Source of the DNA: a virus
Strand: one strand, 5' to 3'
Length of the DNA stretch: 64,000 bases
Virus record (IMG/VR): IMGVR_UViG_3300024272_000069
Positions 6,952-23,595 of the stretch are shown piece by piece. The translations under genes and the position numbers were made by a program. Position 1 is the first letter of the stretch; every line of letters starts with the position of its first letter. The notes under the pieces are model-generated. The model was given only the letters and a program-made list of their open reading frames with translations, made no database searches and had not been told where the DNA came from.

Positions 6952-6970
6952 TTAGATGTTGAACATCTAA
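6952..6970. repeat. 19-bp palindrome copy 1 (TTAGATGTTGAACATCTAA), 9 nt upstream of the -35 box of the promoter for gene 7051
   Basis: Perfect palindrome; followed by aaacgtgac-TTGACT-17-TATAAT. Confidence 0.9.
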
Positions 6971-6979
6971 AAACGTGAC

Positions 6980-7008
6980 TTGACTTTTTAGTGGGTATCC
7001 TGTATAAT
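6980..7008 (+). promoter_or_regulatory. sigma-A-type promoter TTGACT-N17-TATAAT for gene 7051
   Basis: -35 at 6980-6985, 17-nt spacer, -10 at 7003-7008. Confidence 0.75.
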
Positions 7009-7050
7009 AATACTTGCAAGGAGTCCTATAAACAAGAAGGAGGAAAACTT

Positions 7051-7278
7051 ATGAAGATTTGGATTGTAATGGTATGGGATTGCGATGACTGGGAGATTCT
7101 GGACGTTCTGTTCGATAGTGATGCGATTGCACCGCGTGTCACCGAACTGTTCAAAGAGGAAGAAGGCCGCACTGAAATCAAAGTAGAATGCTGGTATAAG
7201 GATCCCACTAATGAAGTCAATGGGTATTTTCTTGATGTTGATGCATATTGGCGGGATGATTGGCTGGAGGGTGAGTAA
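7051..7278 (+). CDS. hypothetical acidic Trp-rich small protein (75 aa)
   Basis: SD AAGGAGG 7 nt upstream; TAA stop. Confidence 0.55.
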   Translation: MKIWIVMVWDCDDWEILDVLFDSDAIAPRVTELFKEEEGRTEIKVECWYKDPTNEVNGYFLDVDAYWRDDWLEGE

Positions 7279-7292
7279 TCACCCTAATATAA

Positions 7293-7311
7293 TTAGATGT
7301 TCAACATCTAA
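7293..7311. repeat. palindrome copy 2 (TTAGATGTTCAACATCTAA) + promoter TTGACA(7321)-17-TATACT(7344)
   Basis: 9-nt gap between the palindrome and the -35 box. Confidence 0.9.
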
Positions 7312-7379
7312 AAATTAAAATTGACATATGGTCATATTTGTGGTATACTATCCATAGAAATAGAAAAGGAGTTGTCTGC

Positions 7380-7547
7380 ATGAAAGTTCTTCTTACTTGG
7401 ATGTATACGCATCCGCATGAGTTTATTCGTATTGTGTTTTTAATCATCATTGCGGCAATCTTTTCTCCTTGGCGTGTAGAGATTCTTTCTGTGTTGTTGT
7501 GCTTTGACTTGGTGTTGTTGTATCTGGTTAGAAATTGGAAGGAGTAA
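7380..7547 (+). CDS. small hydrophobic membrane protein (55 aa)
   Basis: SD AAAAGGAG; predicted transmembrane helix; internal ATG of the track ORF 7338. Confidence 0.4.
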   Translation: MKVLLTWMYTHPHEFIRIVFLIIIAAIFSPWRVEILSVLLCFDLVLLYLVRNWKE

Positions 7548-7551
7548 AATT

Positions 7552-7830
7552 ATGACCATTACTGTTGTTATCGAAGAAAATCATGGCCCTATCATTTATG
7601 CTAAGAATGATGACGCGGCAAAGCGTGCCCTGTTGGAAACGAATTGGGTAGACCAGTTCTCTGATGTATGGTGTCCTGATATGAGTGAAGATGCTCTCAT
7701 GGATGCCGGAGACTTCCGTGCATTGAAGGATGTCTATGGTGATAATTGGGAAGAGCAGTATCTTTCCTTTGATCATACTAAGCTGGAATTGATGGGTTAT
7801 CATTTTTATACCGTAGAGTTGTACGAATAA
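7552..7830 (+). CDS. hypothetical protein (92 aa)
   Basis: SD GGAAGGAG; ATG at 7552; TAA at 7828. Confidence 0.5.
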   Translation: MTITVVIEENHGPIIYAKNDDAAKRALLETNWVDQFSDVWCPDMSEDALMDAGDFRALKDVYGDNWEEQYLSFDHTKLELMGYHFYTVELYE

Positions 7831-7848
7831 TCGTACACTCCTTTTTTA

Positions 7849-7867
7849 TTAGATGTTGAACATCTAA
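7849..7867. repeat. palindrome copy 3, at a convergent gene junction with no adjacent promoter
   Basis: Between the stop of 7552-7830 (+) and the terminator of 7918-8442 (-). Confidence 0.9.
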
Positions 7868-7878
7868 AAATCGCCTAC

Positions 7879-7910
7879 AAAAAAATAACAGGGGATTTGC
7901 ATCCCCTGTT
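7879..7910 (-). terminator. intrinsic terminator (AACAGGGGAT-ttgc-ATCCCCTGTT) for minus-strand gene 7918-8442
   Basis: Perfect 10-bp stem; T-tract on the minus strand (A-tract 7879-7886 on plus). Confidence 0.7.
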
Positions 7911-7917
7911 ATTTCCA

Positions 7918-8442
7918 TCAGGCACGGCTGTAATACGGCTTGCCCTTCACGACTTCACGCTTGACCGTCTCGGCGTTGTCCGCGGCGATGTTCTTGAGGT
8001 AAGTACCCACCTGCATGACACTGACTTCGGCAAGCTCCGGAATCGCCGCCTTGATGTCGGTGGTGGTCATCGGCTCGTCAGTCAGATTGACCATGCACCA
8101 GTCCTTGACAAGCTCCTGCTCCGCGTTACGCTTCGCACGCTTCGCTTCGGCTTCGGGATCGACTTCCTTCGCCTTCTTCTCGGTCTTGGGTTTCGCGTCA
8201 TTCTCCGCACGGGCGGTGATGGCGGCATCCAGATCGAAAGCCGGAGAAGTCTTGGTGGCTTCAGTGTTCTTCACGGTGATTTCCACGGTGGCGAACACGG
8301 TGTTGCCGTTCTCGTCCTTCACGCCGGTGTCAATGGCGTAGCAGTCCTTCTTGGCAACGCGAACCGGAATCAGACCAGCAACGGAAGCGGCGATCAGGTT
8401 CTCAACAGCGGCATTGGCGGCAACACGAATCTCGTTCTTCAT
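7918..8442 (-). CDS. lysine/alanine-rich putative DNA-binding protein, paralog 2
   Basis: Shares VEITVKNTEATKTSPAFDLDAAI and MQVGTYLKNI with paralog 1; KTEKKAKEVDPEAEAKRAKR tract; TGA stop; two tandem upstream promoters (consensus TTGACA-17-TATAAT at ~8525-8555 on minus; a second next to palindrome 8650). Confidence 0.65.
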   Translation of the reverse strand: MKNEIRVAANAAVENLIAASVAGLIPVRVAKKDCYAIDTGVKDENGNTVFATVEITVKNTEATKTSPAFDLDAAITARAENDAKPKTEKKAKEVDPEAEAKRAKRNAEQELVKDWCMVNLTDEPMTTTDIKAAIPELAEVSVMQVGTYLKNIAADNAETVKREVVKGKPYYSRA

Positions 8443-8649
8443 AGGGTATCCCTTTCTGCTTTTTAGGTGGTCGCATCACCTGTCGTTTTGTTTTCCTCTC
8501 TTGAGGATGTATTCATTATACCAGAAGATTTGGAATCTGTCAAGAGTTTTTTGAAACTTTTTTCAATTTCTTTTTTCTCTTGTTCTGTTCCTCTCTCTCA
8601 GGTACGAATATAGTATACATCAAATTTTAGAAAAAGTCAATGCTTAATA

Positions 8650-8668
8650 TTAGATGTTCAACATCTAA
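8650..8668. repeat. palindrome copy 4, flanked by divergent promoters
   Basis: Rightward TTGACT(8678)-17-TATACT(8701) for 8737; leftward TTGACT-17-TATACT (8613-8641, minus) for 7918-8442. Confidence 0.9.
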
Positions 8669-8736
8669 AAATGGTTATTGACTTTTTGTTTTAGGTGTGC
8701 TATACTATCAGTACCAACTGAAAGGAAGTGCATAAA

Positions 8737-9495
8737 ATGAATGTCGTTGTATTCGACACCGAAACCGCAAACATGCAGAAACGTTTCTGCTATAATGTCG
8801 GGTATGTTATCCTTGACATTTCTACTGGTGAAAAGCTGGTGGAGCGTGACTTTGTAGTGGAGCAGATTTGGCATAATGTTGAACTGTTTGCAACTGCCTA
8901 TTATGCGGACAAGCGTGAACTGTATGTCAAGAAAATGCGTTCGCGTAAAGCGGTCATGGATAAATGGGGTTATATCATGCAAACTATGATGCGTGATTTC
9001 AAGCGGCATGAAGTGGTTTGTGCGTATGCGTATAACTCTCCATTCGATGACAAAGTGTTTACCTTTAACTGTGATTGGTTCAAAACTCAGAATCCTTTTG
9101 ACACGATTCCCATTTACGATCTTATGGGACTTGCCTGCGACTGTATCACGCAGTATGATACCTATCATAGTTACTGCGAAGAACACGAGTTTTTCACCGA
9201 ATCCGAAACCGAGTATTCCATCACCGCAGAAACAGTCTATAGGTTCATCACCGATGACCCGACTTTTGTAGAAGAACACACCGCCCTTGCGGATGCACGA
9301 ATTGAAGCAACCATTTTGATGCATTGTCTGAATATGGGGGCATATCCTGACCGAGAATATCCGGTTGTGCATCAGAAACGAGTGATTGAACGTCCGTTCA
9401 AAGTGACCGTTGATGGACAAGTTGTCGCAGAAGGAAAGTACATCAAGAAGTGGCGGCGAGGGGACATTGTTAAATATACGACAAAGAACGGATAA
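8737..9495 (+). CDS. DnaQ-like 3'-5' exonuclease (DEDDh family), paralog 1
   Basis: Motif I VVFDTETA and motif III HTALADARIE; the antisense 277-aa track ORF is an artefact. Confidence 0.7.
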   Translation: MNVVVFDTETANMQKRFCYNVGYVILDISTGEKLVERDFVVEQIWHNVELFATAYYADKRELYVKKMRSRKAVMDKWGYIMQTMMRDFKRHEVVCAYAYNSPFDDKVFTFNCDWFKTQNPFDTIPIYDLMGLACDCITQYDTYHSYCEEHEFFTESETEYSITAETVYRFITDDPTFVEEHTALADARIEATILMHCLNMGAYPDREYPVVHQKRVIERPFKVTVDGQVVAEGKYIKKWRRGDIVKYTTKNG

Positions 9496-9521
9496 CATCC
9501 GTTCTTTCTTTATGCGTGATT

Positions 9522-9540
9522 TTAGATGTTCAACATCTAA
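9522..9540. repeat. palindrome copy 5 at a convergent junction (no promoter)
   Basis: Between the stop of 8737-9495 and the minus terminator at 9553-9575. Confidence 0.9.
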
Positions 9541-9544
9541 TATA

Positions 9545-9575
9545 TAAAAAATAAGGATGATTATTCATCATCCTT
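9545..9575 (-). terminator. intrinsic terminator (AAGGATGAT-tattc-ATCATCCTT) for gene 9561-9956
   Basis: Perfect 9-bp stem; the stop codon lies in the loop; T-tract on the minus strand. Confidence 0.65.
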
Positions 9576-9956
9576 GAACATGTTTCGCATGGTTTCGTAA
9601 GTGTGCTCAAACTCCTTGAAGTCCTTCCACTCCGAATCATCGCAGTCGTAATAGTAACAACCTGCACCGTATTCAAAGGCATCCTGCCAACCATGTTTGT
9701 CCCACGGAGAGCCATAACCAACGGTACGCAGAATTTCGTGCAAGGTCGCCGCCTCTTCTGCACTGTGCGTCTTGATGTAATAGAAGTCCTCATAAACGAG
9801 ATTGTCCTCGTTCAGAAGTGGCATCGGTTCGCCGTAGCGGTCGAACAACTTGAATCCAAGATGTTCTTTGGGAATGGTGGAAACGGTTTCATACAGTTCG
9901 CAATCTTCCTCAGAATCGAACTCTTTGCCGTCATAAGCACGATAAACGATATCCAT
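9561..9956 (-). CDS. hypothetical acidic protein (131 aa)
   Basis: ORF track; SD AAAGGAG; TAA stop. Confidence 0.5.
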   Translation of the reverse strand: MDIVYRAYDGKEFDSEEDCELYETVSTIPKEHLGFKLFDRYGEPMPLLNEDNLVYEDFYYIKTHSAEEAATLHEILRTVGYGSPWDKHGWQDAFEYGAGCYYYDCDDSEWKDFKEFEHTYETMRNMFKDDE

Positions 9957-9984
9957 ATTTTTCTCCTTTCATTTGTGGAAGGTT

Positions 9985-10146
9985 TTACCCTTCCACAATC
10001 TTCCATCCATCTTTGTCAAGGTTTTCCATTAGATTGGCGGCGAAGGTTACACATTCTTCATCCGACCATCCAAGGTTGTTGCGAAGGTTGTCGCACGCCG
10101 CTTCAATCGCCGCGTTGAGTACGGTTGTCGTGATAGTCTTTTCCAT
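9985..10146 (-). CDS. small hypothetical protein (~53 aa, MEKTITTTVLNAAIEAACDNL...)
   Basis: SD AAAGGAG; promoter TTGACA-17-TAGAAT with palindrome 10215 7 nt upstream of the -35 box. Confidence 0.35.
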   Translation of the reverse strand: MEKTITTTVLNAAIEAACDNLRNNLGWSDEECVTFAANLMENLDKDGWKIVEG

Positions 10147-10214
10147 GTTGTTCGCTCCTTTTCTTTTTGTGATTATATTCTATCATAAAAAAGAGAATTT
10201 GTCAACAAATACTA

Positions 10215-10233
10215 TTAGATGTTCAACATCTAA
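10215..10233. repeat. palindrome copy 6
   Basis: Adjacent to the leftward promoter (10178-10208); ~40 nt upstream of the rightward promoter TTGACA(10274)-17-TATACT(10297). Confidence 0.9.
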
Positions 10234-10350
10234 AAATCTTTGAAAATAAAATAAAATAATTTCAAAAAACCTATTGACAAAAGTGGCAACATAGTATATA
10301 CTATAATTGTTCCAAGGAACAAAACAAATAAAAGAAAAGAGGAAACAAAC

Positions 10351-10938
10351 ATGACTAACAAGAACTTCATCAACCTGCGTTCCCACTATGTACCGGATGA
10401 AATCCGCGTCAATCCGTTGTTCAACAATGCTCAGGAGTGCTTTGATGCTATGATGCTGAGCATGGTTCAGAGATGGTATGACCGTTTGACTGACGATGCC
10501 CACAAGGCAATCAGGATTCTGAAGTTTAATCCTACTGTGGTGACTGGTATGATGTTCTTCACCGACGGTTCTATGGATGAAAAGCCGCAGTACTTCGGTA
10601 GCGACTATGAGGACATCGGCACCGAAATGAAGAACTTCGCCCTGTCTCTTGCCCAGAATGATGAAGAATACGAGAAGTGTCAGACCCGTGGTTATGTCCG
10701 CTGGTATAGCCGCATGGCTCAGTCGATCCGCTGGTATCAGAAGGGTATCGAAGATATCGAAAAGACGCACGAACTGACGCTTTCCATTCTGCCGCACGAA
10801 CTGAAAGAAAAGGTTATCGAACAGATTGTGTCTACCGATCCTGTCTGTCAGATGGCGGCACGCAACTACTATGAAGCACTGGAAGATGGACGCAAGGACA
10901 TGCTTCGCAATGCTTTGCAGAAGATGAGGGGTGTATAA
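10351..10938 (+). CDS. hypothetical protein (195 aa)
   Basis: ORF track; SD AGAGGAAA; own promoter at 10274-10302. Confidence 0.55.
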   Translation: MTNKNFINLRSHYVPDEIRVNPLFNNAQECFDAMMLSMVQRWYDRLTDDAHKAIRILKFNPTVVTGMMFFTDGSMDEKPQYFGSDYEDIGTEMKNFALSLAQNDEEYEKCQTRGYVRWYSRMAQSIRWYQKGIEDIEKTHELTLSILPHELKEKVIEQIVSTDPVCQMAARNYYEALEDGRKDMLRNALQKMRGV

Positions 10939-10960
10939 CCCCTCTTTCTTTTGCTGGAGG

Positions 10961-10979
10961 TTAGATGTTGAACATCTAA
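10961..10979. repeat. palindrome copy 7 at a convergent junction (no promoter)
   Basis: Between the stop at 10938 (+) and the minus terminator at 10992-11014. Confidence 0.9.
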
Positions 10980-10991
10980 TAATTAGAAATG

Positions 10992-11014
10992 AAAAAGAGG
11001 TCTTAATAGACCTC
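10992..11014 (-). terminator. intrinsic terminator (GAGGTC-ttaata-GACCTC + T5 on minus)
   Basis: Perfect hairpin overlapping the stop of 11003-11413; plus-strand AAAAA at 10992-10996. Confidence 0.6.
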
Positions 11015-11413
11015 AATGGAGTAGATATACTGTTCTTCTTCCTTGACGAAGGTGTTAAGCACCATGCCGGTGTCATCAACTTCAAGGAAACGACGAGTGA
11101 CCCTCTTAGAATCACGACGCATTTCAGGCATGGTCGGCTTCTTCACGGTCGGATACTTGCGGCGGCTATCATGGGAAGCATAACCAAGTCCGGCGACGCT
11201 TGCCTTGATGCTGGTGCGTTCGGTTTCATCGTCAGTCATGAGAGCGGCAATCTGAGCGGCGGTTTTGTTGGGATGATTCACCATTACGCCGCGAAGCTGT
11301 TGCAGATATTCACGATGCTCGATTTCATCTCGGACGCGGAGATCATGCAACTGCATACGAAGAATGTCCATCTCGTGGTTAGCCTTCTTGCGATTCTGGA
11401 AGTGATTTGCCAT
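11003..11413 (-). CDS. hypothetical basic protein (136 aa)
   Basis: ORF track. Confidence 0.5.
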   Translation of the reverse strand: MANHFQNRKKANHEMDILRMQLHDLRVRDEIEHREYLQQLRGVMVNHPNKTAAQIAALMTDDETERTSIKASVAGLGYASHDSRRKYPTVKKPTMPEMRRDSKRVTRRFLEVDDTGMVLNTFVKEEEQYIYSIEVY

Positions 11414-11495
11414 GTTTATTTACCTTCTTTCTTTTATTATCCCCTTGGGATGATTAGAGTATATCATAGTATAGAAAGAAAGTCAATACCTTTTA

Positions 11496-11514
11496 TTAGA
11501 TGTTCAACATCTAA
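11496..11514. repeat. palindrome copy 8
   Basis: Upstream (in minus sense) of the promoter for 11003-11413. Confidence 0.9.
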
Positions 11515-11539
11515 AAGTTTCCAATAAAAAAGGGGAGGA

Positions 11540-12532
11540 TTACTCCTCACCCATAGGAATGTCGATAATCGGAAGAGCACCAGAACCACCCATCATATAA
11601 GTCGGGAGAGTACCTTCCCAACGCTGGGCATATTCATAAGCGACGATTTCATCAGTAATTGCGGCGGCCTGTGCGGCAATGGCTTCGGCTTCCTTCTGAC
11701 CCTTATATGCGATTGCATCGGCCTCAAGCTGGGCGACTTCATAATCTGCCTGTGCCTTTACCTTTGCGGCTTCGGCATCTGCGTCGGCGTTAATCTTACG
11801 AATAGCCGCGTCATTTTCTGCCTGAATCTTGGTACGCTCGGCAAGCTGACGGGAACGCTCGGTTTCCATTGCCTGCTGGGTCTTATCGCGAAGGGCTTCC
11901 TGCTCTGCAACCTGCTTGGCTTCGATGGCATTGGTGTATGCATCGGTGAAGTCAAAGTCATCAAGGAACACCATTGCTTCAATGCCATAGTTCTGGGCAT
12001 ACGCAGAAACATGCTCATTGATTTCAGACTGAATCAGAGTACGAGTTTCGGTCATGTCTTCGGCTTCACGCAGACCAAACGCGGCCTTAACAGAGTTATT
12101 TACCTGCGGCTTGATAAGGATATTAAAGTAATCTACGCCGACAGTCTTGTAAATATTCGGTGCGGCAGAGGGAAGCAGATTATACTTTACAGTATAAGTA
12201 TAAGTCACTTCCTGAAGATCCTTACTGAAAGAGACATTAGATTCAGTAAAGGTCTGTTCCTTATTGGTCATGGTAACAATCGTCTGCCACGGCTTGTGGA
12301 AATTCAGACCATTACCAAGTGAAACATCTTCGACCCTACCGAACGTAGAAAGGATGCCCGTATGGCCGGTTGGAACGGTAGAAGTGCAAGCAAGGAACAT
12401 GGTAATGCCTGCAACAACGAGACATGCAACCATTACGATAGTACCAAGACCCTTGGCCTTCATCTTACGCAGAATCATCATGGCACACAGACCGCCGACA
12501 AGAAGGATAACGGAAAAGATAATTGCGAACAT
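11540..12532 (-). CDS. SPFH/band-7 (prohibitin/HflK-like) membrane protein
   Basis: N-terminal TM helix, then TGHTGILSTFGRVEDVSLGNGLNFHKPWQTIV (PHB-domain signature); C-terminal Ala/Glu/Gln-rich coiled-coil. Confidence 0.7.
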   Translation of the reverse strand: MFAIIFSVILLVGGLCAMMILRKMKAKGLGTIVMVACLVVAGITMFLACTSTVPTGHTGILSTFGRVEDVSLGNGLNFHKPWQTIVTMTNKEQTFTESNVSFSKDLQEVTYTYTVKYNLLPSAAPNIYKTVGVDYFNILIKPQVNNSVKAAFGLREAEDMTETRTLIQSEINEHVSAYAQNYGIEAMVFLDDFDFTDAYTNAIEAKQVAEQEALRDKTQQAMETERSRQLAERTKIQAENDAAIRKINADADAEAAKVKAQADYEVAQLEADAIAYKGQKEAEAIAAQAAAITDEIVAYEYAQRWEGTLPTYMMGGSGALPIIDIPMGEE

Positions 12533-12617
12533 TGGGATATTCTCCTTTTCTTTTTGTTCTGTTCTCTTGGAACGATATTAGTATAGCATAGGAATATGAA
12601 ATTGTCAATAATAATTA

Positions 12618-12636
12618 TTAGATGTTAAACATCTAA
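12618..12636. repeat. palindrome copy 9 (central A variant, TTAGATGTTAAACATCTAA)
   Basis: Followed in minus sense by TTGACA-17-TATACT for the SPFH gene. Confidence 0.85.
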
Positions 12637-12657
12637 TATTTCAAAGGAAAGGAAGAT

Positions 12658-13089: not shown

Positions 13090-13105
13090 AATTCATTTTC
13101 CTTTC

Positions 13106-13369: not shown

Positions 13370-13376
13370 TATTGTG

Positions 13377-17606: not shown

Positions 17607-17990
17607 TTATGTTACATAATAGTCATAAAGTGCCGGAATATGTTCGGACATGAGACGTTCTTTCGTTTCCCATCTTGGGAAGTCAAACACGCGGAAGGAT
17701 GACCCATACCATTGAATACGGATATGTTCCCAATCTTTTGTTTCGATCATTCGCATAGAAGAAACAGGGAACTTTCCACAAATAATTCCTTTTTCTTCAA
17801 AGAAACGCCAATTTTCACGCGGTTCCTTGCTTCCATAAATGGTAAACAGATTTGGAGTATATTCTTCTACGTCTCCATTAAGGAAGGTAAACACAAAGGT
17901 CGGACGAGAATAGTACGCAGTATTCAGAGGCAAGAAGATTTTTTTAATTTTTTCCCACATATTCAACGCTCCTTTCAGGGATTGCGGCAA
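17607..17990 (-). CDS. hypothetical protein (127 aa)
   Basis: ORF track. Confidence 0.45.
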   Translation of the reverse strand: MPQSLKGALNMWEKIKKIFLPLNTAYYSRPTFVFTFLNGDVEEYTPNLFTIYGSKEPRENWRFFEEKGIICGKFPVSSMRMIETKDWEHIRIQWYGSSFRVFDFPRWETKERLMSEHIPALYDYYVT

Positions 17991-18178
17991 ACTGTCGCAG
18001 TTTCATGTGTCCAATAGAATGTAGCCATCAGATCATTATTGGGGCTTACCCAGTGTTCCCACCAAAAACGCGGAGAGCCGCCAATATTGCCAGATTCTTC
18101 CAGATGCCAATTATTAGCAATCAATTCGTCGCGGCTTGCCTGATAGCCGTCAAAAGGTACGATACTCATGTTGTGCAA
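17975..18178 (-). CDS. hypothetical protein (67 aa)
   Basis: ORF track; overlaps the downstream gene by 16 nt. Confidence 0.35.
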   Translation of the reverse strand: MHNMSIVPFDGYQASRDELIANNWHLEESGNIGGSPRFWWEHWVSPNNDLMATFYWTHETATVCRNP

Positions 18179-18237
18179 CTCCTTTGCTTTGTTTTCTATA
18201 TTGTATCATATATGCTTTAATTTGTCAACAAGATTTA

Positions 18238-18256
18238 TTAGATGTTCAACATCTAA
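18238..18256. repeat. palindrome copy 17
   Basis: TTTGTCAACA at ~18221 (-35 box on minus), 7 nt away. Confidence 0.9.
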
Positions 18257-18278
18257 AACGCTGGAGGAGAAGAGGGGA

Positions 18279-18869
18279 TTATTCAATCCCCTCAATTGCT
18301 TCCATGATTGCTTGATGAATCTTGTGTACATTGGCGGTGATGAACTTCTGTGCCTGTTCTTCATCGCACTCATAGTAGTCCTTCTTATTCTGACAACGGT
18401 TCATGCAACGTGCGTGGTCAAAGATATTGTGCAGTGCATGTTCTGCCGCCTGTGCCTGTGCCTTGTTGGCAACTTCCATATACCACATCTTCTGAACAGG
18501 AGTAGCACGGTTGATGGTGTTATAACGCTGAATGATATCCTTGGTTTCACCCGGCTTCACGCCGCCGGAGATGATGGAGAAGTATACCACATGCTGACCA
18601 CGAAGCGGCTGACCCTGACTGCGAACCAGCTCCACGATCTCAGCCCATTCAGAGCGACAAGCCAGCTCCCACAGACGAGCTTCTTCCGGTTCCAGCATCA
18701 TGGAACAGATGTCATAGGTACTCAGCTTTTCGCGGCTGTACTCGATATAGTCCTTAGTACGCGGCTCAGCTTTACCAGAGAAACGAGACACAGCGTTATA
18801 GACCAGCTGAGCACGGGCGGTTTCAAGGTTCTGGGACTTGGTGGCAGGAGTGTAACGGTTGAAATACAT
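18279..18869 (-). CDS. T5orf172/MUG113-like (GIY-YIG-related) domain protein
   Basis: GQHVVYFSIISGGVKPGETKDIIQRYNTINR...AEHALHNIF fits the VY..G..K.G.T....R...EHxLH pattern; start taken at MYFNRY from track arithmetic. Confidence 0.45.
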   Translation of the reverse strand: MYFNRYTPATKSQNLETARAQLVYNAVSRFSGKAEPRTKDYIEYSREKLSTYDICSMMLEPEEARLWELACRSEWAEIVELVRSQGQPLRGQHVVYFSIISGGVKPGETKDIIQRYNTINRATPVQKMWYMEVANKAQAQAAEHALHNIFDHARCMNRCQNKKDYYECDEEQAQKFITANVHKIHQAIMEAIEGIE

Positions 18870-18957
18870 AGCATTTACCTCTTTCTTTCTGGGGTGCTTC
18901 CCCTTAATTCGTATGACTAATTCTACCACAGAAACAGATAATTGTCAATAAGGTTTT

Positions 18958-18976
18958 TTAGATGTTCAACATCTAA
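18958..18976. repeat. palindrome copy 18
   Basis: AATTGTCAATA at ~18941. Confidence 0.9.
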
Positions 18977-19145
18977 AAACTATAAAAGAGGAATAACTCT
19001 CGTTATTCCTCCATGGGTGTGACTGTGACAACCGGATCACGCATTGCCCAAAATTCGAGGGCGGTTTCGATTGCCATTTCTTCATCTTCTGCAACGCCAT
19101 CCGGCAATTCGTAGTCAACACAATCTTCGATTCTGATATTAAATC

Positions 19146-19391
19146 TCATCTGATATATCCTCCCCTGTAAATGTTACGGTTCTTTTTTCTCTGCTCACGC
19201 TTCCACTCACGCCATGCAAGCCACGCATAATAGATGACCAGAAGCACAGTACCGATGGACATAGACCACATGATGATGGTTAGAATCATTTCACGCGGTT
19301 CTACGAACTGACCAACCACAAGGCCGCAGAAAGCGGAAATAAGCCAAGTAAGAATGATGTCCCAAATAGTGTCATTAAGCATGTTTGTCAA
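19146..19391 (-). CDS. small membrane protein (2 TM helices)
   Basis: Hydrophobic segments LTWLISAFCGLVVGQF and ILTIIMWSMSIGTVLLVIYYAWLAW. Confidence 0.4.
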   Translation of the reverse strand: MTNMLNDTIWDIILTWLISAFCGLVVGQFVEPREMILTIIMWSMSIGTVLLVIYYAWLAWREWKREQRKKNRNIYRGGYIR

Positions 19392-19449
19392 CTCCCTTTA
19401 AGTTATGATTTATTATAGCATCTATTTTTGTTTTTGTCAAGAATTAAAA

Positions 19450-19468
19450 TTAGATGTTGAACATCTAA
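19450..19468. repeat. palindrome copy 19
   Basis: TTTTTGTCAAGAA at ~19431. Confidence 0.9.
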
Positions 19469-19488
19469 AAAAAGAAAGAAGTTTCTTT

Positions 19489-19755
19489 TCAGAAACTTCT
19501 ACCCGCTCCACCACCGCGAGAACTGCCGCCCTTAAAACCGCTGGAGGAAGAACGATGACGATGAGAACGATGGGAAGAATGACTGATAACATCAGACCAG
19601 AACTCAAGCATGACAATAAACTTATCAGTCCAATCCCATTCACGATTGAAAAGCCAATCGAAGATTGCCCAAATGGTTGCACATGCAACACTAAGACCAA
19701 GCAATAGACCAAAAAGAATTGCAAATGCTTTGATGAGTCCGATGAACGTTTCCAT
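19489..19755 (-). CDS. small membrane protein with a His/Ser/Arg/Gly-rich tail
   Basis: TM helix AFAILFGLLLGLSVACATIWAIF; C-terminal HSSHRSHRHRSSSSGFKGGSSRGGGAGRS. Confidence 0.4.
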   Translation of the reverse strand: METFIGLIKAFAILFGLLLGLSVACATIWAIFDWLFNREWDWTDKFIVMLEFWSDVISHSSHRSHRHRSSSSGFKGGSSRGGGAGRSF

Positions 19756-19822
19756 TTTAATTGCTCCCTTCTTTTATTGATTATAGTGTAACATAATTTT
19801 TTCTTTTTGTCAATAATAAAAA

Positions 19823-19841
19823 TTAGATGTTCAACATCTAA
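19823..19841. repeat. palindrome copy 20
   Basis: CTTTTTGTCAATAATA at ~19806. Confidence 0.9.
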
Positions 19842-19866
19842 TAATAAAAAGAAGGTTGACATTATG

Positions 19867-20283
19867 TCAACCCCTGTGCTTGCGAAGGAACGGATGTGCA
19901 TTTACAATTGCATTAACTCTCTCCCACTTTTCCGCGGCGTCATCACGCATAGACTGATAATTGGTATAGTATACCAAGCGTTGTTTCTTGAGAGTTTCGA
20001 TTTCCTCAACAATTTCATCGCGTTCTGCTTTGGGCAACCATCGCAGTTCACTTTCTTTCTTCTCAATTTCCTTCTCATACTTGCGAACGTGCTTCATAAA
20101 ATATGCACCTGCTTCCTTGTCACAAGTAGAAGCAACATGACAAGCACGAAGATATTCCGGATATTCCTTTTCAATTTTCTTGTCGATATGCTTGTAATAC
20201 AAGACCATACCTACACCGCTAAGAATACCACAAAGAACAATGCCGCCAAGGATAACGAGGAAGATTACATTTTCGTAACTCAT
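19867..20283 (-). CDS. membrane-anchored protein (~138 aa) with a charged coiled-coil
   Basis: Start MSYENVIFLVILGGIVLCGILSGVGMVLYY (TM helix), then a K/E-rich segment. Confidence 0.4.
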   Translation of the reverse strand: MSYENVIFLVILGGIVLCGILSGVGMVLYYKHIDKKIEKEYPEYLRACHVASTCDKEAGAYFMKHVRKYEKEIEKKESELRWLPKAERDEIVEEIETLKKQRLVYYTNYQSMRDDAAEKWERVNAIVNAHPFLRKHRG

Positions 20284-20284
20284 A

Positions 20285-20659
20285 TTATTTATCCGTCCTT
20301 TCATAATTGTAATGTTCATGAAGTTTGAAGTTGTAACCGCTGGTGGACCGAGAATCAAGCACTTTAATTTCAAGCGGCATTGTTTCTGCATCTCTATATT
20401 TTGCATAGCACGCAGAACAGACTTTCATAATGTCGGTGGCGTGGTCATTCTCCCACATAAGATAGTAAGAGTTATAACCATCGTCATCGGTAGTATAGAA
20501 GGTTTCTACAATGGTGACGTTCTCAGTATAACTTTCAACTTCTTTCATACTGTAATCAACCACGAAGTCAAACGCGGCCTTGCCCATACAAAAGACACAA
20601 AGAAGAATACCAAGAGTACAAAGAATACTAATAAGTGTTGGGCGGTTGGTTGTTCTCAT
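20285..20659 (-). CDS. small secreted/membrane protein (~124 aa)
   Basis: Signal/TM-like LISILCTLGILLCVFCMG. Confidence 0.4.
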   Translation of the reverse strand: MRTTNRPTLISILCTLGILLCVFCMGKAAFDFVVDYSMKEVESYTENVTIVETFYTTDDDGYNSYYLMWENDHATDIMKVCSACYAKYRDAETMPLEIKVLDSRSTSGYNFKLHEHYNYERTDK

Positions 20660-20725
20660 GTTTTCAATCTCCTTTCTTGATGATAATAGTATACAATAAA
20701 ATTTCAAATTTGTCAATAAATAATT

Positions 20726-20744
20726 TTAGATGTTGAACATCTAA
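20726..20744. repeat. palindrome copy 21
   Basis: AATTTGTCAATAAATA at ~20709. Confidence 0.9.
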
Positions 20745-20765
20745 TTATAAAAAAGATAAGAGAGT

Positions 20766-21032
20766 TTAATCTCTCTTATCCCAACCAGTGTACATCCATG
20801 CCAACAGGATAGGCCGCACAAGGTCATCACCCGTTTCAACATCTTCAAAGGTCATGATTTCCTGTGTGTCGATGTTGCGTACAACCAACTGACAATTACT
20901 GCGATTCCACCAGAAAGACAGGTGAGCATCAGAGCACTTGAAATCCATGATGTTATTCTTGATAAGAACATCAGTAAACAGATGAGCATCGTTGATAGTG
21001 AGGAAGTTAATACGAGAATAGCTGGTGACCAT
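20766..21032 (-). CDS. hypothetical protein (88 aa)
   Basis: ORF track; own consensus promoter TTGACA-17-TATAAT (21064-21102, minus) with no palindrome. Confidence 0.4.
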   Translation of the reverse strand: MVTSYSRINFLTINDAHLFTDVLIKNNIMDFKCSDAHLSFWWNRSNCQLVVRNIDTQEIMTFEDVETGDDLVRPILLAWMYTGWDKRD

Positions 21033-21098
21033 GTTTTACAACTCCTTTGTTCTTTTGATGGTTTTATTATACCATGAGATTAGGGATTTGTCAACCCC

Positions 21099-21344
21099 TT
21101 ATCTCAAAAAATATACATTTAATATTATCAGAGCGATTTGAATAATGTACAGATTCAAATGGGTTTTGTGCCGCGTGTTTAATGCAATGCTGAGAATAGA
21201 ATTTATCAAGCCCAGTATAGGTGCCCACCAATAACCCAGTACGACGAATATTACATTCAACACGGTGAACAGGGCAGAAACGTCGCCCCATTCAAATACA
21301 TACTTTTTCTTTTCAATTCCAAAGAACTCTTTTATGCTTCCCAT
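21099..21344 (-). CDS. small membrane protein (81 aa)
   Basis: ORF track; hydrophobic VIFVVLGYWWAPILGLINSILSIAL. Confidence 0.35.
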   Translation of the reverse strand: MGSIKEFFGIEKKKYVFEWGDVSALFTVLNVIFVVLGYWWAPILGLINSILSIALNTRHKTHLNLYIIQIALIILNVYFLR

Positions 21345-21472
21345 TCTTCTTCACATCCATCATACCATACACGTTTAATAGTCTTGCCATCTGCGGAAAT
21401 GAAATCTTCATATCCCATCCAAGAAGATTCTGCTTGCTGTTCGTCAATTTTGATCCAGTTATCAGAAGTCAT
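21332..21472 (-). CDS. small protein (~46 aa, MTSDNWIKIDEQQ...)
   Basis: ATG overlaps the TGA of the upstream small gene (coupled); SD GGAAAGGAAGG. Confidence 0.3.
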   Translation of the reverse strand: MTSDNWIKIDEQQAESSWMGYEDFISADGKTIKRVWYDGCEEEWEA

Positions 21473-21623
21473 ACACAGTACCTTCCTTTCCATCCTCAAA
21501 GCCCACGCCATAGCAACCGCAAGGACTTTCATACTCTGTCCAGTTCTTGCCTGCCGCGGTCAGTTCCCATCCATCCGCGAGCATCTGAGATTCGGTGACC
21601 TTCATGCCTTTTTCATATTTCAT
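21462..21623 (-). CDS. small Cys-containing protein (~53 aa, MKYEKGMKVTESQ...)
   Basis: Below the track's size threshold; follows palindrome 21715 on minus. Confidence 0.3.
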   Translation of the reverse strand: MKYEKGMKVTESQMLADGWELTAAGKNWTEYESPCGCYGVGFEDGKEGTVYDF

Positions 21624-21714
21624 TTATTCATCCCCTTTTTTCTTTATTCTATCATATGCTGGAGGAAATATCAAGGGGTTATTGAAAAATATTTTTACTT
21701 CTTCTAAAAGTATA

Positions 21715-21733
21715 TTAGATGTTCAACATCTAA
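21715..21733. repeat. palindrome copy 22
   Basis: Perfect copy; GCTGGAGG 50 nt upstream. Confidence 0.9.
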
Positions 21734-21753
21734 AGATGAAATTGTGGGACTGA

Positions 21754-21996
21754 TTAACAGTCCCATGTATAGCCGCCAACATAGGGGTCGAATCCTAACT
21801 CCAAATCATCCGCGGATTCAGAGCATCCATACTCTTCTTCCACATCGAAATCATCATCCCAATCCTCATAGGGATCATCGTCATCCTGATCGCACGGAGC
21901 CGGGAACATCGGGTCATCGTAGTGGCAACGCGGATAGGCTTCGTTCTCGTCCTTCCAGAAGTAGCCGCAGTTGCGGCGTTCGCATTCACTCATCAT
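21754..21996 (-). CDS. small acidic Cys-rich protein (~80 aa)
   Basis: Start MMSECERRNCGYF with SD GAGGAGG 9 nt upstream; DDDD/EE-rich C-terminal half. Confidence 0.35.
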   Translation of the reverse strand: MMSECERRNCGYFWKDENEAYPRCHYDDPMFPAPCDQDDDDPYEDWDDDFDVEEEYGCSESADDLELGFDPYVGGYTWDC

Positions 21997-22150
21997 GGTT
22001 TTCGTCCTCCTCTTCGTTCGTCGGGTACATCTCGTCAACCCATTCAAAACCAAATTCTTCGTATTCGGGGTGCTTCATGTTTATCGCTCCTTGCTTTCTT
22101 TTGATGGTTATATTGTACCACAGAAAAATGAAATTGTCAACACTTTTTTA

Positions 22151-22169
22151 TTAGATGTTCAACATCTAA
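22151..22169. repeat. palindrome copy 23
   Basis: AAATGAAATTGTCAACAC at ~22119. Confidence 0.9.
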
Positions 22170-22193
22170 TTATGTCGGGGTGGTTAACCCCTG

Positions 22194-22511
22194 TTAGAAA
22201 TCGTTTGTTTCATAATGTCTGAATGTACCATCGAATCTGTAATACATCACCACGAAACAACCATTATCAAACCAAATATCAATTTCAAAGAAATCATCCT
22301 CATTACCGGTAGTATATACATCAACAACGTCCGTCATGTATTCGTAACCGTTAGCATGAAGTCGATCTGAAAGTTCCTTGAAACTGTATTGCGTAAGTTG
22401 TTCAACGAACTCTTTCATTTTGATAACTCCTTCTAAAAGCATATTCTTCCGGCGTAAGGTTGCGAACCTTAACCACTCGGCCGCACAATCCCCGTGATAC
22501 TTTAACCGCAT
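22194..22511 (-). CDS. hypothetical protein (105 aa)
   Basis: ORF track. Confidence 0.35.
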   Translation of the reverse strand: MRLKYHGDCAAEWLRFATLRRKNMLLEGVIKMKEFVEQLTQYSFKELSDRLHANGYEYMTDVVDVYTTGNEDDFFEIDIWFDNGCFVVMYYRFDGTFRHYETNDF

Positions 22512-22646
22512 TCAAAATGCAATCACTCTTAATATAGTACGTCAAACCATTTTGAAATGTAAGGGCGTAGTACTTCATGGAATCATCTTCTTTCCTTTTG
22601 TTGTTTATAGTCTAACATAAAAAATGAAATTTGTCAATACTTGAAA

Positions 22647-22665
22647 TTAGATGTTCAACATCTAA
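22647..22665. repeat. palindrome copy 24
   Basis: AAATGAAATTTGTCAATAC at ~22621. Confidence 0.9.
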
Positions 22666-22687
22666 TTATAAAAGGATTTGGTATTAA

Positions 22688-22864
22688 ACCAAATCCGCGA
22701 GTTTATTTTCTACAAAGGCGGCATCTTCAACACGGCAAGTCACCGTGATTTCACCATTGCGGAAATAAGCAAAGCAAGGAATGCGTTCTGCGATTTCATC
22801 AAGGCGTTCGTGAATCAGAGAGGAAAGGATGGTGGGATCGGCGTAAACAGAGATGGTCTTCATG
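22688..22864 (-). CDS. small protein (~58 aa, MKTISVYADPTILSSLIHERLDEIAERIPCFAYFRNGEITVTCR...)
   Basis: Minus-strand reading; SD AAAGGAGG; promoter TTGACA-17-TATAAT at ~22898-22936 (minus). Confidence 0.35.
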
Positions 22865-22955
22865 GGGTTGCCTCCTTTAGTTTGTTTTCTTTTCTTTTTG
22901 TAATTATATTATAGCACACAAAAATGAAATTGTCAACCCCTAAAATAAAAAATTT

Positions 22956-22984
22956 CCCGATGGAGTTAGCTACTCTCCATCGGG
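22956..22984 (-). terminator. intrinsic terminator (CCCGATGGAG-ttagctact-CTCCATCGGG + T-rich on minus)
   Basis: Perfect 10-bp stem; minus-sense downstream AAATTTTTTATTTT. Confidence 0.6.
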
Positions 22985-23140
22985 TCGCACCTCAATATAT
23001 TTATCGCCCGAATCACCGCGAGGCCGTGCAGTGACCGTTTGGAACAGTTATCAAATTATAAGGTGGGTTCGTGCGTTGGCTGTTCCCCTTCGCAAGTTGC
23101 CCTTACACTAAATCAAGTTTCATCAACTACCTTTCTTTCC
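22985..23140 (-). ncRNA. candidate ~150-nt non-coding RNA with its own promoter and terminator
   Basis: Promoter TTGACA-17-TATTAT (23140-23179, minus) with palindrome 23192 upstream; terminator at 22956-22984; no ORF beyond 8 codons; GC-rich relative to flanks. Confidence 0.35.
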
Positions 23141-23191
23141 TTTCGACATGTATATAATAACACAAAATGCTGGAGGTGTCAATAGTCTTTT

Positions 23192-23210
23192 TTAGATGTT
23201 GAACATCTAA
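23192..23210. repeat. palindrome copy 25
   Basis: 9-nt gap to TTGACA (minus) whose spacer contains CCTCCAGC. Confidence 0.9.
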
Positions 23211-23231
23211 AAATAAAAAGGAAAGATGACG

Positions 23232-23519
23232 TTAGTCATCTTCCGCATTCCAACCAACATTCACTGCAGAAACATTGGAGCAATCAATGAAGATTTCTCC
23301 TGCTTCATTGCGAATGCTCATCAGGCCATAATCAGCAACAAACTGGTCAATCAGAGTGATGATTTCAGCTGCCGCACGACTACGCTCATTCTTCTGCTTT
23401 TCACGTTCATCCTTGAGCCTTTCAGCCGCTTCAATGAATGCGGCCAATTCATCATCAGAGCCAACAGAGAAGATGTATTCACCAATACGAACAGAGCTTT
23501 CCATAGAGACTACCTCATT
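23232..23519 (-). CDS. hypothetical protein (~95 aa, MESSVRIGEYIF...)
   Basis: Internal ATG of the track ORF. Confidence 0.4.
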   Translation of the reverse strand, partial: NEVVSMESSVRIGEYIFSVGSDDELAAFIEAAERLKDEREKQKNERSRAAAEIITLIDQFVADYGLMSIRNEAGEIFIDCSNVSAVNVGWNAEDD

Positions 23520-23576
23520 TCTTTCTTTTGATAGCATTATTGTAGCATATTGCAGGCTGTTTGTCAATGCAGGTTC

Positions 23577-23595
23577 TTAGACGTTCTACATCTAA
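23577..23595. repeat. palindrome copy 26 (degenerate: TTAGACGTTCTACATCTAA)
   Basis: Preceded by TTTGTCAATGC at ~23560. Confidence 0.7.

Follow-up and report, generated by a model that had tools for sequence, protein, structure and literature searches.

A symmetric 19-bp palindrome repeated at the early cassette boundaries of an uncultivated TAG-recoded phage as a probable promoter-coupled operator

The window analyzed herein, a 64,000-nt stretch of viral DNA (IMG/VR record IMGVR_UViG_3300024272_000069), carries 26 copies of a 19-bp palindrome, all lying in a region of small early genes (positions 6952-23595) and most standing at a fixed distance upstream of a host-like vegetative (sigma-A) promoter. 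Reading of the sequence alone had led to the proposal (hereafter the original prediction) that this repeat is the operator-like site of a dimeric protein at most early promoters on either strand, and both the anatomy and the conservation described below agree with such a role. The array bears the signature expected of a symmetric, protein-binding operator linked to RNA polymerase, and we put the probability that the palindrome is the operator of a promoter-coupled symmetric regulator at roughly 0.8. As for the sign of this regulation, we tentatively prefer shut-off, i.e., silencing of the early regulon, at slightly less than even odds. The source is an uncultivated phage of gut or rumen, and the window, which encodes a terminase, a portal, and virion proteins, probably represents 64 kb of a genome near 180 kb.

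The palindrome array and its coupling to promoters

As summarized in Table 1, the array was strictly confined to the early region. The pattern TTAGATGT-N3-ACATCTAA occurred in 26 copies in 6952-23595 and nowhere else in the 64 kb, with a chance expectation of practically zero, and a search allowing up to three mismatches likewise placed its 26 copies all within this region, the other 47 kb giving none (0.04 expected). The exact pattern TTAGATGTTSAACATCTAA, namely TTAGATGTT[C/G]AACATCTAA, matched 22 times in the window and not once in 100 shuffles. The original count of at least 26 intergenic copies was thus borne out, and the 24 copies described as perfect were recovered when the two 8-bp arms alone were considered but fell to 22 of the 26 when a C or G was required at the centre. 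The centre base was C or G without strand preference, the deviant copies were those at 12618, 13351, 14751, and 23577, and no isolated half-sites were found in the window.

The array region contains about 35 small genes arranged in about 25 transcription units, mainly on the minus strand, and a palindrome was found at nearly every boundary between these genes. In the direction of the genes, the end of the preceding gene was followed, at almost all copies, by a G+C-rich hairpin with the TAA stop codon in its loop, a T-rich run, the palindrome, and finally a vegetative-type promoter. Terminators were predicted next to the copies in at least 15 cases on the minus strand and in two on the plus strand, and their distance from the palindrome, as read from the flanks, was variable (about 10-18 nt), whereas the distance from the palindrome to the -35 box was fixed. 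This placement at the cassette boundary (terminator, palindrome, promoter), which had been overlooked in the original prediction, is as tight as the placement relative to the promoter. In addition, the early genes extend into their intrinsic-terminator hairpins, the TAA stop being located in the loop or the upper part of the stem (e.g., 9553-9575, 12651-12667, 14141-14156, 14782-14800, and 15133-15153), and the coding sequence thus overlaps the terminator in almost all cassettes.

The copies fell into three classes. In the proximal class, 17 copies were located exactly 9 nt from a promoter of the form TTGAC(A/T)-N17-TATA(A/C)T and one (22151) at 10 nt; because the copy at 8650 serves two divergent promoters, the 17 copies at 9 nt correspond to 18 promoters. 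With the -10 hexamer taken as -12 to -7, so that the start site is deduced from the -10 box, the proximal palindromes would span -63 to -45 and be centred at -54. Both the approximately 18 copies originally placed near -54 and the sharing of copies by divergent promoters were thus confirmed. The distal class comprised five copies at 30 nt (16237), 40 nt (17467 and 21715), or 41 nt (14751 and 16917) from a promoter, and the junction class comprised three copies (7849, 9522, and 10961) situated between convergent terminators without any promoter. The array region terminates at a palindrome-free consensus promoter near 25234, which drives the first operon.

Beyond the window, related loci (here designated by L numbers) that were retrieved via the exonuclease-like gene 8737-9495 contained 9-40 palindrome copies per 20 kb. 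In a survey of 24 loci with 665 palindrome sites, 519 sites had a promoter within 60 nt and 146 (22%) had none. The spacing was exactly 9 nt in 424 of the 541 promoter assignments and 7-10 nt in 489, and the remaining assignments peaked at 18-21, 28-31, and 38-42 nt with almost none in between, a periodicity that corresponds to the helical repeat. A fixed spacing of 9 nt, with the rarer copies displaced by one to three helical turns, suggests that a bound protein would sit on one face of the helix beside the polymerase. In one related phage with a TTAGACGA-type operator (L054, 361-12183), the hairpins before the palindrome frequently lacked a T-run, and the palindrome was separated from the -35 box by 22-38 nt of a conserved element rich in A/T (AAAAAAGT.. 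before TTGAC); the 9-nt spacing is therefore not universal in the clade.

The original prediction had further divided the promoters into two subsets, and these were found to differ systematically. Perfect consensus was observed in 15% of the proximal-palindrome promoters (n = 374), whose commonest -10 box was TATACT and whose -35 box was TTGACT in 41%, versus 44% of the palindrome-free promoters (n = 169), which most commonly carried TATAAT and had TTGACA in 64% (Fisher p = 1e-13 for perfect consensus). The core promoters next to a proximal palindrome nonetheless matched the consensus at 10-11 of 12 positions, and 84% had an extended -10 TG. Among the palindrome-free promoters named originally, those at 21064, 8525, and 13978 were found within a few bases of the given positions, the one at 22898 proved to be about 10 nt off, and a fifth was recognized at approximately 25234-25206. 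In the window, these palindrome-free (class II) promoters carry A-tracts of the form AAAAAAGTTTCAAAAAAC directly 5' of the -35 box, the very place that the palindrome takes in the other class. The division also extended to the genes: the exonuclease, the HAD nucleotidase, and several small families were linked to the palindrome, whereas the winged-helix family had a palindrome-free promoter in 53 of 62 cases, the family of the gene at 16958 (16958-like) had mostly distal copies or no palindrome, and the tRNA genes of the window were preceded by a palindrome-free promoter. The palindrome marks a regulon distinct from that of the palindrome-free A-tract promoters.

Table 1. Palindrome copies and palindrome-free promoters in the window
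Feature	Position	Strand	Context
Copy 1, perfect	6952-6970	.	9 nt before + promoter 6980-7008 (TTGACT/TATAAT) of gene 7051-7278
Copy 2, perfect	7293-7311	.	After hairpin holding the stop of 7051-7278; 9 nt before + promoter 7321-7349 of 7380-7547 and 7552-7830
Copy 3, perfect	7849-7867	.	Junction of convergent terminators, no promoter; kept in all 3 close relatives aligning there
Copy 4, perfect	8650-8668	.	Common to divergent promoters, each at 9 nt: - 8640-8612 and + 8678-8706
Copy 5, perfect	9522-9540	.	Junction of convergent terminators, no promoter; kept in 4/4 close relatives
Copy 6, perfect	10215-10233	.	9 nt to - promoter 10205-10177; 40 nt to + promoter 10274-10302
Copy 7, perfect	10961-10979	.	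Junction of terminators 10926-10944 (+) and 11014-10997 (-); kept in 4/4 close relatives
Copy 8, perfect	11496-11514	.	Terminator on one side; 9 nt to - promoter 11486-11458 of 11003-11413
Copy 9, centre A	12618-12636	.	9 nt to - promoter 12608-12580 of SPFH-domain gene 11540-12532
Copy 10, intact arms, centre ATT	13351-13369	.	9 nt to - promoter 13341-13313 of 13106-13264 and AbrB-like 12658-13089
Copy 11, perfect	14110-14128	.	9 nt to - promoter 14100-14072; then palindrome-free promoter 14006-13978, 13864-14052, and two tRNA genes
Copy 12, first base C	14751-14769	.	Distal, 41 nt to - promoter 14709-14681 of HAD-like gene 14147-14647; GCTGGAGG in between
Copy 13, perfect	15098-15116	.	9 nt to - promoter 15088-15060 of 14789-15028
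Copy 14, perfect	16237-16255	.	Distal, 30 nt to - promoter 16206-16178 of exonuclease-like gene 15141-16145
Copy 15, perfect	16917-16935	.	Distal, 41 nt to - promoter 16875-16847 of winged-helix paralogue 16279-16776
Copy 16, perfect	17467-17485	.	Distal, 40 nt to - promoter 17426-17398 of 16958-17407
Copy 17, perfect	18238-18256	.	9 nt to - promoter 18228-18200
Copy 18, perfect	18958-18976	.	9 nt to - promoter 18948-18920 of T5orf172-domain gene
Copy 19, perfect	19450-19468	.	9 nt to - promoter 19440-19412
Copy 20, perfect	19823-19841	.	9 nt to - promoter 19813-19785
Copy 21, perfect	20726-20744	.	9 nt to - promoter 20716-20688
Copy 22, perfect	21715-21733	.	Distal, 40 nt to - promoter 21674-21646
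Copy 23, perfect	22151-22169	.	10 nt to - promoter 22140-22112
Copy 24, perfect	22647-22665	.	9 nt to - promoter 22637-22609
Copy 25, perfect	23192-23210	.	9 nt to - promoter 23182-23154
Copy 26, TTAGACGTTCTACATCTAA, two changes	23577-23595	.	First copy beyond the palindrome-free first operon; 9 nt to - promoter 23567-23539
Palindrome-free promoter (class II)	25206-25234	-	Consensus with upstream A-tract, as read from the sequence; first early operon 24323-25081, 23918-24253, 23619-23876
Palindrome-free promoter (class II)	22908-22936	-	Perfect consensus; T/A-rich upstream element
Palindrome-free promoter (class II)	21066-21094	-	Perfect consensus
Palindrome-free promoter (class II)	13978-14006	-	Perfect consensus; AAAAAAGAATTTCAAAAAAACTA abuts the -35 box upstream; precedes tRNA genes
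Palindrome-free promoter (class II)	8515-8543	-	Perfect consensus; GAAAAAAGTTTCAAAAAACTC upstream; winged-helix gene 7918-8442

Constraint, lineage variants, and distribution

Orthologous sites were compared in four close relatives (L147, L150, L151, and L152), which had been recovered via homologues of 7918-8442. Positions 2 to 8 on either side of the palindrome centre were 97-100% conserved, followed by positions 1 (85-92%) and 9 (76%), and the centre itself was conserved in only 44%; the flanks were mostly at 60-90%. For the promoters, TTGAC of the -35 box was conserved in 100% and the -10 box with its extended TG in about 97-100%, the -35 and -10 boxes as hexamers reaching about 96-97%. 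Purifying selection thus acts on the arms of the palindrome as strongly as on the -35 and -10 boxes.

Such a profile might in principle reflect the structure of the nucleic acid itself, with an RNA or DNA hairpin or a cruciform acting as part of a bidirectional terminator or as a supercoil sink without any dedicated protein. The palindrome does stand directly after terminator hairpins and could form an 8-bp stem with a 3-nt loop. However, this stem would be weak, with a free energy of only -4.6 to -5.7 kcal/mol, no Rfam family matched the palindrome, and the sequence itself, beyond its pairing, is identical across copies and phages. Furthermore, hybrid sites combining two non-complementary arm types were common, accounting in L055 for 11 of 37 sites and in L066 for 14 of 23, and there is therefore no base-pairing constraint. 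Considering also that the palindrome keeps its distance from the -35 box and not from the terminator, a structural role is very improbable, and a function as hairpin or terminator was ruled out on the basis of the hybrid arms, the weak stem, and the Rfam result. No T-run followed the palindrome in the window copies. A mini-ORF (open reading frame) within the palindrome (ATG-TTS-AAC-ATC-TAA, sometimes with GGAGG 8 nt upstream) was also considered and ruled out, as variant palindromes have no start codon.

The operator sequence itself varied between lineages. In addition to the variants TTAGGTGT, TTGGATGT, and TTAGGTGG, we found TTAGACGT in L097 and L109, TTAGACGA in L054 and L140, TTACTGTA with extended symmetric flanks in L053, and an 8-4-8 form in L049, in which the arms were unchanged and the centre had become 4 nt. 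In the close relative L150, 16 of 17 sites read CTAGATGT...ACATCTAG (CTAG..CTAG), the outer base pair being changed on both arms, whereas the T..A outer pair was kept in the window and in the three other close relatives. A whole-array change of this kind would be produced by a co-evolving reader protein or by frequent conversion among the copies. The promoter-less junction copies took part in this concerted switch and were kept in every close relative aligning there, and across the loci the proportion of perfect sites was 86% for promoter-less versus 92% for promoter-linked copies (p = 0.056). Apart from these single sites, one stretch of four tandem palindromes with a 21-bp period, the two outer copies being degenerate, was found in a related phage (L014 9255-9336, equivalent to L043 3124-3205), where it precedes the first palindrome-linked promoter directly after the palindrome-free first operon.

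A motif scan extended to related phages, which had been suggested along with the original prediction, revealed that the array is not peculiar to the window. In an exact scan of IMG/VR, palindrome arrays were detected on many large contigs (24-190 kb), and at least 30 contigs other than the window had two or more copies; their alignment to the window was limited to intergenic modules and a few genes. The palindrome is thus a clade-wide element with evolving variants. Among 50,697 deposited phages, in contrast, the palindrome was seen only as single chance matches and never as an array, and a megablast search of the region against the same set gave no match; the closest deposited relative, phAss-1, had no such palindromes in its first 50 kb, and the related contigs of L046 and L047 are palindrome-free as well. 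A search of the open-access literature for the palindrome sequence returned primers only and no paper printing it.

A repeat common throughout the host chromosome had been named at the outset as the observation that would speak against a phage operator. Among 185,579 bacterial and archaeal species genomes (596 Gb, exact matches only), no array was found on any long bacterial contig. The scan returned 18 stretches, of which 12 were single matches in unrelated taxa, roughly as many as chance would produce, and multi-copy matches were restricted to contigs of 1.9-4.4 kb from metagenome-assembled genomes (Acutalibacteraceae, Oscillospiraceae, and Bacillota) that resemble the phage arrays. With its copies in host chromosomes at chance level, the palindrome is not a REP/BIME-like host chromosomal repeat.

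The same scan bears on the possibility that the palindrome is read by a transcription factor of the host, whether activating or repressing. The phages would have placed the high-affinity box of this factor at their early promoters, coupling early expression to the physiology of the host, and the variants would then reflect different hosts. Several observations are consistent with this: the identical operator occurred in phages whose early proteins were at most 30-58% identical or showed nothing recognizable in common, no phage candidate co-varied with the operator, the phasing to the promoter is that usually seen with class I factors of a host, and the layout (9-1-9, the centre base being free) recalls the boxes of the Fur family. 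Nothing above chance was found by exact matching in the species genomes, however, even in those of the Oscillospirales, and related phages differed in their operators by arm sequence or spacing (L039, L049, and L053), as did phages from the same sample. The switch of the outer base pair in one close relative (16 of 17 sites) is also difficult to reconcile with a host box, and 26-40 perfect sites per genome copy would titrate such a factor. We therefore regard a host factor as rather unlikely.

Candidate readers and the sign of regulation

Three candidate binders had been put forward originally, and none of them withstood the comparison. The helix-turn-helix (HTH) protein 4052-4456 turned out to be the front part of a 279-residue ORF (3617-4456) that contains an in-frame TAG and a DUF6291 domain. 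A search for its relatives gave none among the IMG/VR contigs, the set from which the other palindrome phages had come. The AbrB-like protein has an AbrB/SpoVT-like N-terminal domain that was essentially invariant, being nearly identical in phages with TTAGATGT, TTAGACGT, and TTAGACGA operators; moreover, over 400 viral contigs encoded this protein, the majority of these contigs had no palindromes, and arrays were present in only about 8 of the 79 loci fetched. The third candidate, the K/A-rich family, was attractive, as its AlphaFold model (mean predicted local distance difference test score 86.9) indicated a true winged helix-turn-helix in the C-terminal domain, which is predicted to resemble the DNA-binding domains of the ArsR, Fur, and BlaI families and in which the conserved MQVGTYLK segment would be the recognition helix. 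Among phages with the identical operator, however, this helix read KVQYAL, QVGTYL, or QKTSSL, and the family was also present in two palindrome-free relatives. It was thus set aside as the binder in spite of its fold and of its palindrome-free promoters. No sequence similarity of the winged-helix family to solved structures was detected.

The architecture of these proteins also varied. In the lineage of the window, 5777-6292, 7918-8442, and 16279-16776 each encode one polypeptide composed of a 16958-like N-domain, a K/A-rich helix, and the winged helix-turn-helix, whereas in IMG/VR relatives an N-domain protein with a K/E tail and a winged-helix protein were separate genes. The promoters of both the N-domain and the winged-helix genes mostly lacked a proximal palindrome.

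Further early proteins were also compared. Those of the palindrome-free first operon were ruled out as a conserved activator, since they were not recognizably conserved between the phages. The early families present in all palindrome phages were only two exonucleases, the HAD nucleotidase, the 16958-like family, and a membrane protein; some of these are enzymes, and none co-varied with the operator. No recombinase-type Pfam match was obtained among about 35 early and flanking proteins, and neither a repressor nor an integrase was recognized among the window proteins scanned. Since no early-region protein common to phages with the same operator qualified, the reader is therefore encoded outside the early region, lineage-specific, or a host protein.

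With regard to the sign, activation is considered first. CRP acts as a class I activator from -61.5 and in-phase positions, and the Ogr protein of P2 and the Delta protein of P4 use a dyad, TGT-N12-ACA, near -55. If a phage protein, either immediate-early or injected, or a host protein bound at -54 and recruited or stabilized RNA polymerase via the alpha subunit in the manner of CRP or P2 Ogr, the palindrome cassettes would constitute a delayed-early regulon turned on after the palindrome-free immediate-early promoters. The geometry is indeed of the activator type, with the centre at about -54 and alternatives displaced by single turns (9, about 20, about 30, and about 40 nt), the palindrome stands in for the A-tract UP-like element of the palindrome-free promoters, and the AT-rich 9-nt spacer could accommodate the C-terminal domain of alpha. 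The lower consensus match of the proximal-palindrome promoters (TATACT and TTGACT), the service of two divergent promoters by a single site, and the order of the gene classes, in which DNA-metabolism genes such as those of the exonuclease and the HAD nucleotidase are palindrome-linked and the winged-helix genes palindrome-free, as in a regulator followed by its regulon, point in the same direction. On the other hand, core promoters that match the consensus at 10-11 of 12 positions and mostly have an extended -10 TG should be strong unaided, 3 of the 26 window copies and 22% of the sites across the loci have no promoter and yet are conserved, no immediate-early protein is common to phages with the same operator, and the recognition helix of the winged-helix proteins is not conserved among them. 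The dyad sites of known class I activators share with the palindrome their location upstream of the -35 box, their dependence on the helix face, and a position suited to the C-terminal domain of alpha, but they accompany -35 boxes of poor quality, with four to six such promoters in a phage, unlike the 20-40 sites, some of them promoter-less, with near-consensus boxes observed here. Taken together, activation is a serious possibility but not a likely one.

Silencing is tentatively favoured for several reasons. The promoter-less junction copies are conserved and share the concerted switch in L150, and perfect sites are almost as frequent among promoter-less copies as among promoter-linked ones. 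One phage has four tandem copies, with a period of 21 bp, at its first regulated promoter, and the tRNA genes and the most conserved early genes use palindrome-free promoters. To our knowledge, every known phage operator array, including the stoperators, SPBRE, the conserved inverted repeats (CIRs) of phiC31, and the C1 operators of P1, is a precedent for shut-off. That the regulator would be made later is suggested by the lack of a qualifying reader among the shared early-region proteins.

Some considerations weigh against this view. An in-phase site at -54 that replaces an UP element beside a slightly sub-consensus core is the classical anatomy of activation, as with CRP in its class I mode and the P2 Ogr dyad. 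A repressor bound 9 bp from the -35 box without overlapping the core would need contact inhibition or oligomerization, and gene conversion among the copies could passively keep those without a promoter conserved. The identical operator next to very divergent early proteins would equally fit a conserved host factor. Finally, there is no specific support for an immunity repressor like those of the stoperators or SPBRE, because no integrase was found among the scanned proteins and no array on long bacterial contigs.

On balance, we propose that a single sequence-specific protein with two-fold symmetry would bind the palindrome, each half reading the arm TAGATGT (positions 2-8) and leaving the central bases unread. 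One such operator stands at nearly every single-gene cassette boundary, after the terminator, and, if a promoter comes next, occupies -63 to -45, where the palindrome-free promoters have the A-tract UP-like element for the alpha subunit, so that the bound dimer could communicate with RNA polymerase at this contact position. As the protein accumulates, the whole early standard-code regulon would be silenced, possibly by occupying or holding the upstream contact of alpha together with a barrier at the cassette boundaries, whereas silencing would not reach the palindrome-free promoters of perfect consensus, which drive the first operon, the tRNA genes, and the winged-helix and K/A-rich genes. The binder would most likely be phage-encoded, outside the early region, and its specificity would co-evolve with all copies of a genome. 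The repeated operator doubles as the point of cassette exchange and inversion between phages.

Cassette junctions, genome context, and significance

The ends of homology blocks (719 ends from 90 pairs of related loci) were compared with random points. In total, 18.4% of the ends lay 8-11 nt from a palindrome centre, i.e., at its outer edge, versus 1.7% of random points, and 34% versus 5.5% lay within 8-20 nt. Blocks started at the upstream edge of a palindrome in 72 cases and ended at a downstream edge in 29, and the usual mobile unit is therefore palindrome-promoter-gene-terminator. In the window, three plus-strand segments were bounded exactly by palindromes, with convergent junctions at 7849, 9522, and 10961 and divergent ones at 8650 and 10215, the pattern expected from inversion between two palindromes. 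Genes resembling NUMOD1 or GIY-YIG homing endonucleases were also present between early cassettes of the close relatives (L147 1485-2312; L152 911-1741 and 3309-4001; L150 7281-7982), on the opposite strand in L147 and L152, and were absent from the corresponding places of the window.

These data would be accounted for if the palindrome were primarily a linker or crossover site for the swap, deletion, and inversion of promoter-gene-terminator cassettes, with regulation being secondary, as for the PeSL elements of T4-type phages, and the concerted evolution of the copies within a genome would fit as well. Recombination by identity, however, needs neither a palindrome with a free centre, arm-wise variation, and a 9-nt register nor selection on the arms as strong as that on promoter boxes, and any dispersed repeat turns into a junction as a by-product. 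In addition, no recombinase was associated with the array, and a centre of 3 nt or 1 nt fits neither the 6-8-nt cores of tyrosine recombinases nor the 2-nt cores of serine recombinases. A primarily recombinational role is thus quite improbable. It is similarly a long shot that one protein both insulates or regulates each early gene and catalyzes or directs cassette exchange and inversion at the palindrome; if so, the early region would be an integron-like plug-and-play pool across the TAG-recoded clade, and the operator specificities would diversify like immunity groups.

Independent support for the early assignment of the cassettes came from the genetic code. The late genes (window 25529-64000 on the plus strand and 3617-4883 on the minus strand) are TAG-recoded in a code 15-like manner: reading TAG as sense, the plus-strand ORFs of at least 100 residues grew from 8,108 to 13,220 residues in sum, 39442-51510 became 4,022 residues with 64 in-frame TAGs, and 53092-58596 became 1,834 residues with 20. 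The sigma-like gene (25529-26854) and the conserved gene 26857-27789 were interrupted by TAG only. The palindrome cassettes, in contrast, were unaffected and use the standard code, which, together with their host-type promoters, fits the label "early" given to them originally. No suppressor tRNA was found in the window, whose only tRNA genes were those for tRNA-Lys(UUU) and tRNA-Leu(CAA). The window portal shared 27-29% identity with its counterparts in phAss-1, SPbeta-like, and Tsamsa-like phages, and phAss-1 has been filed under the "Caudoviricetes code 15 clade" (PMC10607447). Standard-code early genes with recoded late genes are an arrangement described for recoded gut phages (bioRxiv 10.1101/2021.08.26.457843).

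Several further repeats surround or accompany the array. Exactly at its left edge (window 6420-6900), about 270 bp of A+T-only repeats (6452-6690), with periods near 5, 20, and 73 bp, precede a G+C-rich block with CCAGCTT iterons (6700-6830), and this stretch could be a replication origin or a genome end. Further to the left, the largely non-coding stretch 4690-5460 contains three to four copies of a repeat family TTTTGAAAATGAAAGTT...CAACTGTA and a 44-nt inverted repeat (5032-5075 / 5321-5364). The octamer GCTGGAGG, one base from the Chi sequence of E. coli, occurs in 16 + 7 copies in 2371-28290 versus about one expected per strand; within 6892-23169, 13 copies are on the plus strand and none on the minus strand. 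It is mostly intergenic, frequently 13-36 nt from a palindrome or within promoter spacers, and is enriched only in the lineage of the window (L147, L150, L151, and L152) and not in the IMG/VR relatives. Finally, L147 (about 90% protein identity) is located on a scaffold of 361 kb (scaffold_12, 361,041 bp), about twice the 165-190 kb of the longest related contigs, which may reflect a concatemeric assembly rather than a prophage; no evidence of integration was seen.

Phage operator arrays as such are already known. The CIRs of phiC31 are inverted repeats of about 17 bp, highly conserved and bound by the c repressor; like the palindrome, they occur in many intergenic copies in the early region, but phiC31 is temperate, its binder is known, and its early promoters do not belong to the vegetative-sigma class of the host. 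Repression of strong promoters from an upstream, non-overlapping site via the C-terminal domain of alpha is exemplified by p4 of phi29 at A2c and by GalR at -60.5 of galP1, which, unlike the present case, are single sites of known proteins and not arrays.

The stoperators of Cluster A mycobacteriophages are 13 bp long, asymmetric, read by a monomer, and oriented with transcription inside transcription units, where they stop elongation (PMC6550527, PMC9283540). The likeness drawn to them in the original prediction held in that the number of near-identical intergenic copies of one short site bound by an L5 gp71-type repressor is similar, the motif differs between related phages and evolves with its system, and the protein acts beyond a single promoter. 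It did not hold for the anatomy, since the palindrome is a symmetric 19-mer fixed 9 nt upstream of promoters, is limited to the early region, and stands in the window after terminators and before the next promoter, on both strands and in divergent pairs. SPBRE of the Bacillus prophage SPbeta, a 15-bp motif in 10 promoter regions that is bound by MrpR (YopR), a repressor of tyrosine-recombinase fold responsible for maintaining lysogeny (PMC10516654), shares with the array a repeated promoter-region element under one master regulator in a large Firmicute phage, and the window portal is distantly similar to those of SPbeta-like phages (26.8% identity). Differences lie in the 26-40 copies per genome, the absence of a recombinase-like protein among the scanned window proteins, and the absence of any sign of lysogeny. 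In the PeSL of T4-type phages, a promoter and a stem-loop flank small variable early genes and serve as points of cassette gain, loss, and exchange (PMC2839356, PMC4122927). The same breakpoint behaviour was measured here, but an extra palindrome with a profile of its own (free centre, highly conserved arms, and variable flanks) is inserted between terminator and promoter. What is new in the present array is that it is symmetric, located at -54 and not on the promoter itself or inside transcripts, and present once per single-gene cassette, that it doubles as a mosaic seam, and that it comes with a natural series of variants.

These findings offer a first way into the gene regulation of code-15 (TAG-recoded) phages of gut and rumen Firmicutes, a large clade without cultivated members, in which the array marks the early standard-code genes individually and splits two promoter classes. 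The perfect 19-mer is a ready bait for the regulator, and the series of operator variants, from the change in arm spacing to the genome-wide base-pair switch, amounts to a natural experiment in the co-evolution of a regulator with its sites; few datasets beyond the mycobacteriophage stoperators show a regulator co-evolving with dozens of sites. The variants are also a possible source of orthogonal operator/regulator pairs for synthetic biology. The junction data, in turn, extend the idea developed for the PeSL of T4, that regulatory repeats serve as seams of mosaicism, to an unrelated group of phages.

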